From the NCBI GenBank assembly GCA_965216635.1, contig OZ244188.1, forward strand, positions 991,058 through 1,055,057: a stretch of 64,000 bases of DNA, in the 5' to 3' direction. The notes under the pieces were generated by a model. The model did not search any database. It was not told the origin of the DNA and worked only from the letters and a program-made list of their open reading frames with translations. Positions 23,049 through 33,952 of the stretch are shown one piece after another. The position numbers and the translations under genes were made by a program. This stretch comes from a bacterium. Lineage in GTDB: Bacteria; SAR324; XYD2-FULL-50-16; G965216635. Position 1 is the first letter of the stretch, and every line of letters begins with the position of its first letter.

Positions 23049-23453
23049 TTATTGTTTGATATTTACTAATTGCTGGCGAGTTTGTGAACGGTGAATTTTA
23101 TTTTTTAATTTTTCTTGGATTACGATTTCAACTTTTTCTGTTTCTATAGCTACCATTTTTTTCAATGCGTTTTTTTCTGCCAATTTAGCTCTTTCTAAAT
23201 CTACTTTTTCTTCGCAAAGTTTTACAGCAATGGAAACTTTATCCGATTTTACTTGAACAAATCCATGATGCACCGCAAAACAACTTTTTTCTCCTTGATT
23301 TTGAATACAAAGTACTCCAGAGCGGATAATACTTAAAAGATTAGCATGCCCTGTAAGTATACCTATTTCTCCAGCTAGTGTGGAAATAACTACTTCCTCT
23401 GCCTCTTTTTTGAGTAGTTTTTTCTGTGGAGTTATTAATTCTACTTTTAACAT
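23049..23453 (-). CDS. atpC: ATP synthase epsilon subunit
   Basis: ELITPQK...GEIGILTGH...VHHGFVQV. Confidence 0.9.
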   Translation of the reverse strand: MLKVELITPQKKLLKKEAEEVVISTLAGEIGILTGHANLLSIIRSGVLCIQNQGEKSCFAVHHGFVQVKSDKVSIAVKLCEEKVDLERAKLAEKNALKKMVAIETEKVEIVIQEKLKNKIHRSQTRQQLVNIKQ

Positions 23454-23498
23454 ACGCTATATTATTTTTTGGATAATTTTTTTTTCATTTTTCTGTCA

Positions 23499-23972
23499 TT
23501 ACTCTAATCCTATTCTCCCTAGATAATTACAAAATCTTTGAGATAATAATTCACGATGCAAAGTAACTAGGGTCGCAACATATCTTTGAGCTTGATCTAA
23601 AATAAAATTTTTTTCAAATGTATAATAACGTTTAAAATCAATTACTAATGCTTTTAATTTTAAATTTTCTCCAAAGTAATGAAATCTAGCAAGTTCATTA
23701 TCTTTTAATAATTTTTTTTTTGTATTCCCTTGAATAGGACTCATGGTATTTCCCTCTATATAACTTCCGTCTATAACGAATTCACATTCATACATAGGCA
23801 ATAACATAATACTTGGTAAATTAAAATTATTTAAGGAATGCTCAATATCACACGATTGTGAAATAATAATAGATTTTGACAGAGTTAATCTTTTTTCATC
23901 AGATAAGTCTATTTCTAATTCTTTCAATATTGTTCCTTGTGTTATTTTTTTATTTACATCATATTCATACAT
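23499..23972 (-). CDS. Hypothetical protein (QG..IIISQSCD..RELLSQRFCNYLGRIG), third gene of TIGR04255-like triad
   Basis: SQxCD and C-terminal RxG motifs recall proteins found beside TIGR04255 genes; PemK-like strand pattern. Confidence 0.65.
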   Translation of the reverse strand: MYEYDVNKKITQGTILKELEIDLSDEKRLTLSKSIIISQSCDIEHSLNNFNLPSIMLLPMYECEFVIDGSYIEGNTMSPIQGNTKKKLLKDNELARFHYFGENLKLKALVIDFKRYYTFEKNFILDQAQRYVATLVTLHRELLSQRFCNYLGRIGLE

Positions 23973-23983
23973 AATAAATATAA

Positions 23984-24220
23984 TTATCCCATTTTTCTAT
24001 CGTATTTAGATTTTGGAAGTATAGTAGGATTTGTTGGAAAAAATGTAGCAAAAATTTCATTTCTACAATTAGTCGTGGTTTTATCAATAAAATAAATAAA
24101 ATTATAACGCTCTATTTCCTCTTTTTTTGCCTCTACAGGCTCTCTTCTTATATTATACCTGTTATACTCATTCTCGTTAAGTCTCCAAAGGTCTAAATCT
24201 TTACCTACTAATTTATTCAT
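23984..24220 (-). CDS. Small hypothetical protein, middle gene of triad
   Basis: 78 aa ORF with 11-12 nt gaps to both neighbours. Confidence 0.55.
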   Translation of the reverse strand: MNKLVGKDLDLWRLNENEYNRYNIRREPVEAKKEEIERYNFIYFIDKTTTNCRNEIFATFFPTNPTILPKSKYDRKMG

Positions 24221-24232
24221 ATTTTTTTATTT

Positions 24233-24973
24233 TTAAGTTTGCAATTCTTTCTTTAAAGAACTTGTAATGCTTTTAAAGAAAAGTGATTCAATTATCTCAT
24301 GCATAGCATCTAATTTCTTATCAACTTCATTTTCATTCACATTCAAACAAACAGCATCATAATCTAAAAGAAAATTTTCTTTTTCTAGTGGTGATGGATA
24401 ATTTTCATTATAATTTCCAAATAAAAAAGTAGTATCAATACTATTATCATCATTTCGATAACTGAGTCTATTTAAGTTTATAGATTTTTGAAACATTGAA
24501 GATTTACGATTTTTTGATATAAAATCAAAAAACTTATTATTAGATAGTAAATATTCGTGGACACATTTTTTCAAATTGCCTTTTAGTATATTTATATATC
24601 TAAAGCCTATTCTACTAACATACTTGAATGAAGGTTCTTTTTTTAAAATTTTTAATGCTTCTAAAAACCGTGTTTTTAAGTTTTCATACCCTATATACTT
24701 CTTAAATTCAAAAAAACAAAACACATCACTAACACCAAAATTATTATTTTTATTATCAAAATATTTATAAACAGGAAAATTTCTTTGGTCAAGTATTCTC
24801 CTATTATTCAAAAAAACTTCCTTAGTCTCTGTGTTTTGTTCTACTATGTTTTTTTCTGGGTATTTTTTATGAAAAGTCTCTTCAAATTCTTTATGAGTAA
24901 ATCTCTTAATCTGCTCAAAATCAATTTTTAAAATAACTGAATCTAAATAATGTTGGTTAGTAGATAAATTCAC
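24233..24973 (-). CDS. TIGR04255-family-like protein
   Basis: LDSVILKIDF...YKY...SRIGFRYIN...FLLDYD...HEIIESLF pattern. Confidence 0.75.
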   Translation of the reverse strand: MNLSTNQHYLDSVILKIDFEQIKRFTHKEFEETFHKKYPEKNIVEQNTETKEVFLNNRRILDQRNFPVYKYFDNKNNNFGVSDVFCFFEFKKYIGYENLKTRFLEALKILKKEPSFKYVSRIGFRYINILKGNLKKCVHEYLLSNNKFFDFISKNRKSSMFQKSINLNRLSYRNDDNSIDTTFLFGNYNENYPSPLEKENFLLDYDAVCLNVNENEVDKKLDAMHEIIESLFFKSITSSLKKELQT

Positions 24974-32197: not shown

Positions 32198-32199
32198 AT

Positions 32200-32742
32200 T
32201 TATATTTTTTTTGTATTCAGTTGGATTTTGTTTAAAAAATTTCTAATACTGCCGTCTACTAAAAAACTTTTGATTTGAGCAATAAATCCTCCCAGTATTT
32301 CTCTATCCATAATTTCTTCTAGTTTTACTTTGCATTGAAAAGAATTTTCTAGTTGTTTTATAATTTCTTCCTTTTTGTAAGTATCTAAACTTTCTACAGT
32401 AGTGATTTTAACCACCAAACTTTTATTATACTGGTAATACAACTCACCGAATACTTTCAATATTTCTTTAAAAATTATAAATCTATTTCTAAGAACTAAA
32501 AATTTTAAAAAATTATAAACATTCTTGTCTAAATTCTGAGAAGAAAAAACTTTCTCCACCAACCGTAACTTATCTTTAGAAGCTACCCGTTGGCTTTCCA
32601 AAACCTCCTTCAAATCGGCAGAGTTTTCTAAAATAACATTCACTTCTTTTAATTGCCCGAAATAGCAATCTATAGAGTTTGTTTCTTTAGCTAAAGAAAA
32701 AATACTTTTTGCATAACGCAAAGCTAGGGTGTAAGAAATCAT
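32200..32742 (-). CDS. atpH: ATP synthase delta subunit
   Basis: ALRYAKSIF...[15 protein letters not shown]. Confidence 0.9.
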
Positions 32743-33335
32743 AACCAGTTTTTTTGTTTTAGACTACCTAAAAAACTAGAAAAATACTTATCTTCGTTCA
32801 CTCCAATCGTCTTATCTTTGAGCTGTGTTTCAAATTTTTTTAAGGATAAATCTAAAATTTTCTTATAGAGTATATTTTTAGCATCTCTATATTCTTGGAG
32901 CATAACTATTTCGTTATTTTCCTCTAGTTTTTTAATAAGTTTTTTTGTATCTAAAAACATATTGTCTTTTTCTTGCTCTACTTCTTTGTAGTATTTTTTT
33001 TGTCTTATTTCCAGTTTTTCCTCCGTCTGCTGTAGTTTTTGTTTTAATTCTGTTAATTCTTGACTAATTTTTTTCTTTTCATCCAAAGTAGAAAAAAATG
33101 ATTTATACTCTCCTTGAGCTATAGCTTTCAGAGCTGCTACAATTTTTTTTTTGAAAAAAAACCAAAGAAGCCCAAAAAAAATGAAAAAGTTGATGGATTT
33201 GAGTAATAAATCCGTCCAGTTCGCCCCTTCTGCTCCATGTGCGCTTTCTGCAGCAAAAACAGAAAAACTAGTAATAGAAAAAACTAGCAATAGAAAAAAC
33301 AAACTGCTTAATAGTAGTGAAAATATTCGTTTCAT
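32739..33335 (-). CDS. atpF: ATP synthase b subunit
   Basis: Extended N-terminus, KSINFFIFFGLLWFF, coiled coil; position before atpH. Confidence 0.8.
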   Translation of the reverse strand: MKRIFSLLLSSLFFLLLVFSITSFSVFAAESAHGAEGANWTDLLLKSINFFIFFGLLWFFFKKKIVAALKAIAQGEYKSFFSTLDEKKKISQELTELKQKLQQTEEKLEIRQKKYYKEVEQEKDNMFLDTKKLIKKLEENNEIVMLQEYRDAKNILYKKILDLSLKKFETQLKDKTIGVNEDKYFSSFLGSLKQKNWL

Positions 33336-33353
33336 TATATTATCTTTATATTA

Positions 33354-33508
33354 TAGACCTTTTGAATTTGCGTTATGTGACGGCTAGCCAAATGGTTAGG
33401 CAGGTGCGAAAATTTGTAAAACAGCGGAGCATACACGCTAGTATGTGAGCATTTTTTACAAATTTTCAACGCTGCATAGGCTAAACAGAATGCAAATTCA
33501 AAGGTCTA
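33354..33508. mobile_element. Palindromic element between atpF' and atpF
   Basis: TAGACCTTTTGAATTTGC ... GCAAATTCAAAGGTCTA; core GCGGAGCATACACGCTAGTATGTGAGC; overlaps atpF' stop. Confidence 0.85.
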
Positions 33509-33952
33509 TGCTATTTTATTTTTTAAATCTTCCACCATACCATCCACTAAACTCTCTGTATTTTCTTCTATATTACGAAGATCTGCTTGGTATTCTTGGC
33601 GGGTTATTTTATTTTTTTCTTCTAGTTTTTGTTTGCTCTCATTTATCATCTCGTCTAGCTCCTGTTTCTTGTTTCTTAACTGATGAGCTCGGTGAGCAGA
33701 CAATTCTTGAACCGATTCTTCTTGAATCCTCCAAATAGTTGAATCTACCTTATCTTTTTCATTTTTAAGCTGAACTATTTCTGCTTCAAAACTTCCTTTG
33801 TTATTTTCTCTATTAATAATAGTGCGTAAGACTGGCTTAAATAGTAAAAAATGTAGTGAAATCACCAATAGAGAAAAGACTACTAAGACAAAAAGAGCAT
33901 TTGTCCACTCCAAGTGGAGCAAGCCAAAATTAAATATTGTATATTTTTCCAT
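33506..33952 (-). CDS. atpF2: ATP synthase b' subunit
   Basis: TM helix then LHFLLFKPVLRTI and coiled coil. Confidence 0.75.
   Translation of the reverse strand: MEKYTIFNFGLLHLEWTNALFVLVVFSLLVISLHFLLFKPVLRTIINRENNKGSFEAEIVQLKNEKDKVDSTIWRIQEESVQELSAHRAHQLRNKKQELDEMINESKQKLEEKNKITRQEYQADLRNIEENTESLVDGMVEDLKNKIA

Follow-up and report, generated by a model that had tools for sequence, protein, structure and literature searches.

How did nine unrelated genes come to lie in an ATP synthase (atp) operon, and why are they kept there? This question was raised by a stretch of 64,000 nucleotides (G000:C1:991058-1055057, hereafter the window) of a bacterial genome, G000, which consists of one contig of 2.39 Mb with a G+C content (GC) of 34%. 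A preliminary description of the window had proposed that its atp operon serves as a landing strip for gene cassettes. The reading that we hold, with moderate confidence, is that the sole atpF'FHAGDC operon of this organism has had five seams filled by unrelated accessory DNA, that it is an instance of a genome-wide pattern, and that the inserts would have entered and persisted by the steps proposed in the Discussion.

Gene order at the atp locus

All genes of the locus, assigned with Pfam, NCBIfam and the sequence itself, were on the minus strand. Along that strand, the order was tyrS, a 27-bp tandem repeat, a 517-amino-acid (aa) paralog of an outer-membrane protein (OMP) family, atpF', a palindromic element and atpF-atpH-atpA. 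These were followed by menA, a Panacea/SocA gene, a 46-aa open reading frame (ORF), a 129-aa ORF (orf129), atpG, a 321-aa ORF (cc321) and atpD. The locus ended with a second copy of the element, a TIGR04255 gene, a 78-aa ORF, a 157-aa ORF (orf157), atpC, a ferredoxin gene, trkA and trkH. This interleaved order agreed with the preliminary description, in which each named gene stood at the place and on the strand found here. The OMP paralog and the 27-bp tandem repeat upstream of atpF' were a further insert, outside the range of that description. In total, nine genes and two repeat elements were added within this locus. The genes formed four blocks: the OMP gene; the second menA copy (menA2) with a nested Panacea/peptide unit and the gene of a predicted EVE/YTH-like protein; the membrane coiled-coil gene; and the TIGR04255 triad.

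The seven F1Fo subunits (b', b, delta, alpha, gamma, beta and epsilon) were recognisable with Pfam and NCBIfam. Relative to the canonical contiguous operon of the sister genome (G001) and of order and class relatives, the same genes were present, intact, single-copy and in the same order. However, four internal seams and one upstream seam were expanded here by 0.15-2.1 kb each. The operon was non-contiguous at atpF'/atpF, atpA/atpG, atpG/atpD and atpD/atpC. Since atpA and atpD each occurred once in the genome, this locus encodes the sole F-type ATP synthase of the organism. The true start of atpG was the ATG at 28514 rather than that of a longer 329-aa ORF.

Spacers measured 33, 27, 0, 67, 19, 13, 35, 12, 11 and 45 nt, and the two element-bearing gaps were 170 and 199 nt. 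Apart from these two gaps, the spacers were short (0-67 nt), as described before. The inserts had also been described as more AT-rich than the atp genes. With a GC of 23-32%, they were so relative to atpA, atpG and atpD (35-41%). However, atpF, atpH and atpC (27-32%) were like the inserts, and this part of the claim did not stand.

Comparison with relatives

The atp genes had been said to be normally contiguous, and this was the case in every relative examined at the family, order and class levels. The reference set contained one genome of the same family, G001 (1.6 Mb), whose atpG was 58% identical. In this genome, the order was tyrS-atpF'FHAGDC-fdx-trkA-trkH (fdx, the ferredoxin gene), and the gaps within the operon measured 7-60 nt. 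Contiguity was also seen in two family-level contigs (L136 and L137) and at thirteen more loci of the order, the class and more distant groups. The atpA match and atpD lay 1.16-1.30 kb apart in another 12 genomes of the class, compared to 4.29 kb here. Interleaving was seen in none of the approximately 25 other class genomes that were readable.

Closer relatives were metagenome contigs, in which atpD was 97%, atpA 88-93% and atpG approximately 83% identical. L046, L047, L128, L129 and L135 belonged to ENA ERZ26869290. L046 and L047 had the order atpA, orf129 homolog (45% and 34% identical), atpG and atpD. In L128, atpA was followed directly by orf129 (83%). L129 joined a menA tail directly to orf129 and carried, after atpG, a P-loop ATPase in place of the 321-aa gene. 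This ATPase (L129:1905-2531), in the atpG/atpD seam, had an NESGKTT motif and a weak AAA_23 match. L130 showed atpA, Panacea with a degenerate peptide ORF, atpG, a 350-aa cc321 homolog and atpD, and then a 265-nt spacer, atpC, fdx, a DNA methylase and trkA. In L135, the order was cc321 homolog, atpD, element and atpC, without the triad, and the atpD/atpC spacer matched 25008-25123 of the window at 78%.

The comparison of atp operons that the preliminary description had called for showed that cassette content varied among genus-level relatives. The same inserts were not fixed throughout the clade, as the subsets differed and an empty site of the Panacea cassette was present. The sister, family and class relatives were contiguous, and the genus relatives carried differing subsets. 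This meant that the inserts were lineage-specific and variable, and no assembly artefact. The atp blocks arrived stepwise within the genus and differed between relatives. Identity at four-fold sites between G000 and L130 was 0.45-0.69 everywhere in the atp flanks, and there was therefore no sign of recent exchange in these flanks. A literature search, limited in reach, gave no relevant paper on interrupted atp operons.

Expanded junctions in the whole genome

A comparison of G000 with the whole of G001 yielded 1081 pairs of reciprocal best hits (median identity 57%). Junctions were called tight when the genes were co-directional and less than 150 nt apart in G001 and their adjacency was kept in G000 (n=468). 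More than 300 extra bp were found in G000 at 66 of the 468 (14.1%), and more than 1 kb at 33. In the reverse direction, more than 300 extra bp in G001 were found at none of the 316 junctions that were tight in G000. Loose or divergent junctions were expanded slightly more often (21%, compared to 14% of the tight ones). The GC of the inserts was 30.4%, compared to 34.2% for core genes (p=5e-21).

The insertion rate increased with the conservation of the flanks. By tertile of mean flank identity, it was 7.7%, 11.5% and 23.1% (Mann-Whitney p=6e-5; n=468), and the trend was the same for inserts of more than 600 bp. When every tight pair of G001 was counted in the denominator, with or without kept adjacency, the values were 5.4%, 6.2% and 17.9%. 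Approximately one in seven tight co-directional junctions was expanded compared to the sister genus, most often between the most conserved genes. This bias fits deletion protection, easier homologous capture between conserved flanks, or survivorship, which are inseparable here.

The atp run had the most expanded junctions in the genome, three of seven. However, a maximum of at least three in some six-junction window was reached in 60% of label permutations (P=0.60). The atpA and atpD genes were among the most conserved, and because the rate in the high-conservation class was 23%, three of seven was unremarkable. The density of the palindromic element at the locus was that of the genome mean. 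A dedicated landing strip at atp was thus not supported, and atp was the densest and most conspicuous case of a genome-wide process. Accumulation of accessory genes inside essential operons, as the preliminary description had it, fitted the finding that insertion was approximately three times commoner between highly conserved pairs; what was not supported was its specificity for atp. Co-orientation of the inserts was likewise ruled out as a distinctive feature. Inserted ORFs were co-oriented with their flanks at 86:9, which equals the 92% baseline for any gene between co-oriented neighbours in this genome.

The cargo was examined for 49 ORFs inserted at other tight junctions, which included seven N6_N4_Mtase and five Panacea genes. 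Further cargo families elsewhere were EcoRI, TaqI, HNH, AAA_15/AAA_21, Phd, ParE and M78 peptidase. The added genes were mostly DNA methylases, restriction enzymes, Panacea and other toxin-antitoxin (TA) genes, and defence-type ATPases.

The Panacea cassette and its direct repeats

The Panacea match to PF13274 was 61 bits against a cut-off of 25.7, and the NF047745 match was below its equivalog cut-off. G000 had 18 Panacea paralogs, compared to one in G001. About half of the 18 were followed by a small downstream ORF with a hydrophobic C-terminus. At the atp locus, the sequence of the 46-aa peptide made it a candidate PanT-like membrane toxin. PanT proteins are small membrane-depolarising toxins paired with PanA, as validated by Kurata et al. 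2022 (PMC8832971). The present pair was similar in that a small ORF, whose product has a charged N-terminus and a transmembrane (TM) helix at the C-terminus, directly adjoins the Panacea gene, and in that the family is multi-copy and lies in variable loci. However, the candidate pair is known from sequence, and the peptide had no detectable homology to known or validated PanT toxins. In addition, 18 copies in a 2.4-Mb genome was an unusual expansion. A probable membrane-depolarising toxin pair would thus sit among the genes of an enzyme that consumes membrane potential, which would make it a natural subject for expression studies.

The unit of Panacea and the 46-aa ORF was 712 bp long and had no mobility gene inside. 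It was bracketed by a direct repeat of 53 nt (81% identical). Repeat A was the current menA tail, and repeat B was the displaced earlier tail. The empty site was found in L129, where a single menA tail was joined straight to the orf129 start. A ParE/Phd-YefM pair was observed outside the window at G000:C1:367204-368028 (825 bp), between two tight co-oriented core genes, with a perfect direct repeat of 50 nt at its two sides. A long target duplication was thus seen at two TA cassettes.

Proposed entry without recombinases

No integrase was found near the inserts, as the preliminary description had noted, and the whole genome had almost none either. It contained one tyrosine recombinase, presumably Xer, which lay approximately 400 kb away and of which G001 had a counterpart. 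No serine recombinase (resolvase), rve-type transposase or TnpB was found genome-wide. Two copies of a 1489-bp DDE insertion sequence (IS) were observed at about 1838148 and 2068847, and the mobilome was otherwise almost empty. With regard to an integron, no IntI was found beyond the single tyrosine recombinase and no repeat common to the cassette borders was found in a scan of the region, in which the attC motif was not searched for. ComEC, the competence channel, was present.

Restriction-modification (R-M) gene complexes were reportedly found by Nobusato et al. in 2000 to insert with long target duplication, also into operon-like clusters. Kobayashi's group described such insertion for R-M units that lack mobility genes (Furuta, Abe and Kobayashi 2010, PMC2853133). 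The cassettes described here were similar to these in several respects. They included a small selfish cassette without a mobility gene, in an insert of less than 20 kb. Direct repeats of more than 30 bp flanked this cassette, and a relative with the empty site had only one copy. The repeat overlapped the 3' end of the upstream gene, and the GC of the insert was below that of the genome. In addition, R-M genes were the commonest cargo at the other expanded junctions of this genome. However, the cassettes that keep repeats carried TA-type genes (Panacea with the peptide, and ParE/Phd), not R and M. Several cassettes were stacked in one essential operon, and approximately 14% of the tight junctions were expanded genome-wide.

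We also considered core-gene-flanked hotspots. Oliveira et al. are said to have reported in 2017 that, in transformable bacteria, chromosomal hotspots of gene gain lie between core genes and lack mobile-element genes. Variable accessory genes between conserved genes, the lack of an integrase and the presence of ComEC were features in common. However, the sites here were single seams inside an operon with one to four genes each, and inter-strain recombination was not demonstrable at saturated synonymous sites. The nearest known kind was recombinase-free insertion of selfish cassettes into operons. The present case differed from it in the TA cargo with tail duplication, the stacking of cassettes in an essential operon and the genome-wide bias to conserved seams.

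Other inserted genes

The resident menA was syntenic and located at genome positions 516547-517452, approximately 0.5 Mb away, and it was 55% identical to the copy at the atp locus. G001 had one menA, at the resident locus. The NDxxD and DxxxD motifs of menA2 were intact.

The orf129 product was predicted to have an EVE/YTH-type (PUA-like) fold. Its AlphaFold2 (AF2) model, built from only 4 sequences, had a predicted local distance difference test (pLDDT) score of 82 and a predicted template-modelling score (pTM) of 0.78. The best Foldseek match was the N-terminal EVE domain of VcaM4I, a modification-dependent nuclease (8.5e-5), followed by stand-alone EVE proteins and YTH domains. The matches to VcaM4I, Rpa0253 and YTH domains had a probability of 1.0, E-values of 8.5e-5 to 1e-3 and template-modelling scores of 0.57-0.63. 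There was no EVE match in Pfam. The homologs in the same seam of relatives (83%, 45% and 34%, as given above) indicated that orf129 is the oldest occupant of the atpA/atpG seam and that its divergence is much more rapid than that of the adjacent genes.

In the cc321 protein, a TM helix at the N-terminus was followed by 11-residue repeats, which vary in number, and by a C-terminal domain of helices. The AF2 model of this protein was poor (mean pLDDT 51). Homologs in the same seam of L130 and L135 were 51-57% identical (for L130, 51% by tblastn and 57% in a protein alignment), where atpD was 97% identical. Two paralogs were observed at G000:C1:482212-483214 and 483971-484980, in two seams just upstream of rpsL-rpsG-fusA-tuf.

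The triad was single-copy and had the lowest GC (23-28%). The TIGR04255 match spanned profile positions 4-251 of 252, in a family without known function, and the protein was absent from G001, L130, L132, L134 and L135. No Pfam, PADLOC or PDB match was found for orf157, and a MazF-like reading of it found no support in these searches. PDB sequence searches with orf157, orf246 and cc321 gave nothing significant. No defence-system model of PADLOC matched any insert, and the triad and cc321 were therefore not called known defence systems.

The OMP family gave 128 tblastn high-scoring segment pairs in this genome, with close paralogs at 72-76%, and none in G001. The last 102 nt of tyrS (approximately 35683-35784 of the window) recurred at 94-97% at G000:C1:340136-340237 and 341774-341875. 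This tail precedes close OMP paralogs approximately 650 kb away, and therefore OMP copies moved with the tail of their upstream neighbour. The 27-bp repeat had at least seven units, with a CCTGCAGG core and an A-run, and related repeats were observed at more than 10 genome sites. Several of the sites with repeats of this type adjoined OMP-family matches, and the repeat type preceded other OMP paralogs.

The palindromic element

The element resembled a miniature inverted-repeat transposable element (MITE). It was present at 471 loci in G000, of which 92 were of at least 100 nt, and was absent from G001. It was non-coding, 45-250 nt long (median about 45) and located in intergenic spacers, also within operons. 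Its mean density was 2.2 per 11 kb genome-wide, and the atp region had two. The ends, CTTTGAATTTGC and GCAAATTCAAAAG, paired in the fold. The copy in atpF'/atpF was a nested palindrome with an RNA fold of -44.5 kcal/mol (z=-5.3) and no U-tract. The two copies at the locus fell in repeat families D9 and D17. An Rfam scan of 22000-37000 showed no family.

Repeats of the MITE and repetitive extragenic palindromic (REP) types are co-transcribed in operons, such as the Correia elements of Neisseria, the Rickettsia palindromic elements and the enterobacterial ERIC/BIME. Likewise, the present element had hundreds of copies, terminal inverted repeats, a strong hairpin, no coding capacity and intergenic sites that included operons. 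However, it had no sequence relation to these families and no Rfam match, no autonomous partner was found for it, and it was absent from the sister genus. The only IS in the four transposase families searched (two copies, DDE_Tnp_1) had unrelated ends, and a tie between the element and this IS was thus ruled out.

Possible transcription across the inserts

No terminator-like hairpins were found at the insert borders on the coding strand. Together with the spacers of 0-67 nt, this made read-through plausible, and the inserts may be transcribed with the atp genes. A promoter scan gave 53 sites compared to 49.8 expected, which was uninformative.

Discussion

The reading stated at the outset proposes that cassettes would enter without an integrase or transposase. 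They would then persist, since many cargos may be addictive and imprecise deletion between essential genes would be lethal. Only co-oriented, terminator-free inserts would survive in the operon, and they would hence probably be read through with atp. A stronger form of this reading is that selfish TA, R-M and defence cassettes are preferentially gained or kept in the most conserved, essential and highly expressed seams, with tail-duplicating entry and a ride on the host transcript, and that atp is an extreme 'safe harbour'. We put this form forward tentatively and regard it as doubtful.

Several points weigh against the reading. The effect of conservation could partly be survivorship, as weakly constrained junctions may have been lost after rearrangement. 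Taken alone, the comparison of G000 with G001 fits insertion in G000 or deletion in the smaller G001, and polarity was shown for atp only, via outgroups. A long flanking repeat was found at one of 47 larger insertion sites, the ParE/Phd pair, where the outer borders were tested; tail duplication is therefore not a general visible signature. Only the young cases, the two TA cassettes, keep repeats, so that for the other inserts the mechanism is extrapolated from these two. Synonymous sites between G000 and L130 were near saturation, and 'turnover' is therefore slow, with differences accumulated over a long time. The cc321 gene appears to have been inherited vertically since the split of G000 and L130. 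Finally, the ERZ26869290 contigs were palindromic or concatemeric with few-kb units and frameshifts, and the gene order was the same in every arm. These contigs look like amplification or long-read chimeras and are unsuitable for distances.

We weighed whether cassettes prefer, or are possibly targeted to, the atp operon itself, where seam sequence, transcription level or conserved gene tails would attract them. Such a preference would be in line with its rank as the run with the most expanded junctions, with at least three separate events in the atpA/atpG seam and with three states of the atpG/atpD seam among relatives. The permutations and the 23% rate given above leave this rank unremarkable, the two elements match the average density, and the same cargo families were found in many other operons. 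We therefore consider targeting of atp unlikely. Recruitment of some inserts as partners of respiration or ATP synthase appeared even less probable to us. In that case, menA2 would supply menaquinone, and cc321 would be a b-like stator or a regulator. It is true that menA belongs to the respiratory-chain genes, that both of its Asp motifs are intact, and that the build of cc321, with an N-terminal TM helix and a long helix of 11-residue repeats, recalls subunit b. In addition, cc321 was kept in atpG/atpD since the split of G000 and L130, with a third-position identity of 0.68, as in the flanks, and 0.79 at position 2. However, cc321 was absent from L046 and L047, was replaced by the P-loop ATPase in L129 and had paralogs that neighbour the rpsL operon rather than ATP synthase genes. 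It was also far less conserved than atpD. A resident menA exists elsewhere in the genome, and nothing links Panacea, the triad or the predicted EVE-like protein to ATP synthesis. Family-level relatives have none of these inserts.

The interleaved order could also be ancestral, with the contiguous operons of G001 and others produced by repeated precise deletions. In favour of this, G001 is reduced (1.6 Mb), and none of the tight junctions showed an insertion in it compared to G000. However, every outgroup in the family, order and class was contiguous, nested intermediates and an empty site with a single repeat copy occurred among relatives, and insert GC was below that of core genes. Ancestral interleaving is thus highly improbable. 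An assembly chimera that joined the inserts to the atp genes, which the preliminary description had raised as a concern, was the least credible of all. Related contigs from one ENA sample were palindromic chimeras, and this data type is error-prone. However, L130, which comes from another assembly, likewise had Panacea in the atpA/atpG seam and a cc321 homolog in the atpG/atpD seam. Homologs of orf129 were located between atpA and atpG in four further contigs, and the junctions were in-frame, with short spacers and intact genes throughout.

On the reading that we favour, of accessory DNA entering atp as part of a genome-wide pattern, nine foreign genes and two hairpin elements were tolerated in this operon. 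This shows how far operon integrity can relax. The 14% of junctions, the threefold rate at the most conserved pairs and the R-M and TA cargo give a testable rule for the survival of selfish cassettes without an integrase. If the conserved-flank bias reflects deletion protection or recombination-assisted entry, it would connect genome expansion in reduced, probably host-associated bacteria with addiction modules and operon architecture.

Feature coordinates and a neighbouring seam

Table 1. Features of the atp locus, in positions of the window, listed in gene order.
Feature	Position	Strand	Remarks
tyrS	35713..36993	-	Pfam tRNA-synt_1b 5e-77; directly before atpF' in G001 and L136
27-bp tandem repeat	35467..35715		Between tyrS and the OMP gene; repeat family D1
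517-aa OMP paralog	34005..35558	-	Inserted between tyrS and atpF'; large family here, none in G001
atpF' (b')	33506..33952	-	NCBIfam NF006293 4e-9; G001 ortholog 43%
MITE-like element, copy 1	33336..33505		Fills the atpF'/atpF spacer: 170 nt vs 20 nt in G001
atpF (b)	32739..33335	-	Pfam ATP-synt_B; G001 ortholog
atpH (delta/OSCP)	32200..32742	-	Pfam OSCP 1e-38
atpA (alpha)	30647..32197	-	Pfam 2.7e-85; single copy
menA, second copy	29651..30613	-	TIGR00751, 180 bits vs cut-off 102
Direct repeat A, present menA tail	29647..29699		53 nt including an identical 31-mer; repeat family D5
Panacea/SocA protein (PanA-type antitoxin)	29132..29623	-	PF13274 1.9e-16; NF047745 7e-21
46-aa peptide	28991..29131	-	Abuts the Panacea stop; basic N-terminus, C-terminal TM helix
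Direct repeat B, displaced original menA tail	28935..28987		Repeat family D5
129-aa protein (orf129)	28534..28923	-	Predicted EVE/YTH-type PUA-like fold
atpG (gamma)	27591..28514	-	Pfam 1.2e-90; 307 aa
321-aa protein (cc321)	26612..27577	-	N-terminal TM helix, 11-residue repeats; 33-bp DNA repeats, family D2
atpD (beta)	25173..26576	-	Pfam 8.6e-75; single copy
MITE-like element, copy 2	24974..25172		atpD/atpC seam
TIGR04255 protein, triad gene 1	24233..24973	-	TIGR04255 2.9e-18, 66.6 bits vs cut-off 30
78-aa ORF, triad gene 2	23984..24220	-	No family; weak PHROG match only
157-aa ORF (orf157), triad gene 3	23499..23972	-	phrog_4575 3.9e-9, phage family of unknown function
atpC (epsilon)	23049..23453	-	Pfam 9e-22
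Ferredoxin (fdx)	22806..23036	-	Pfam Fer4_13; conserved downstream neighbour in G001, L130, L136 and L137

Downstream of the operon, an N6_N4 DNA methylase was observed between the ferredoxin gene and trkA in L130 (6525-7373) and L137 (4840-5610), and this seam here held a 165-nt spacer only. The distribution suggests loss of the methylase here or repeated gain in relatives.

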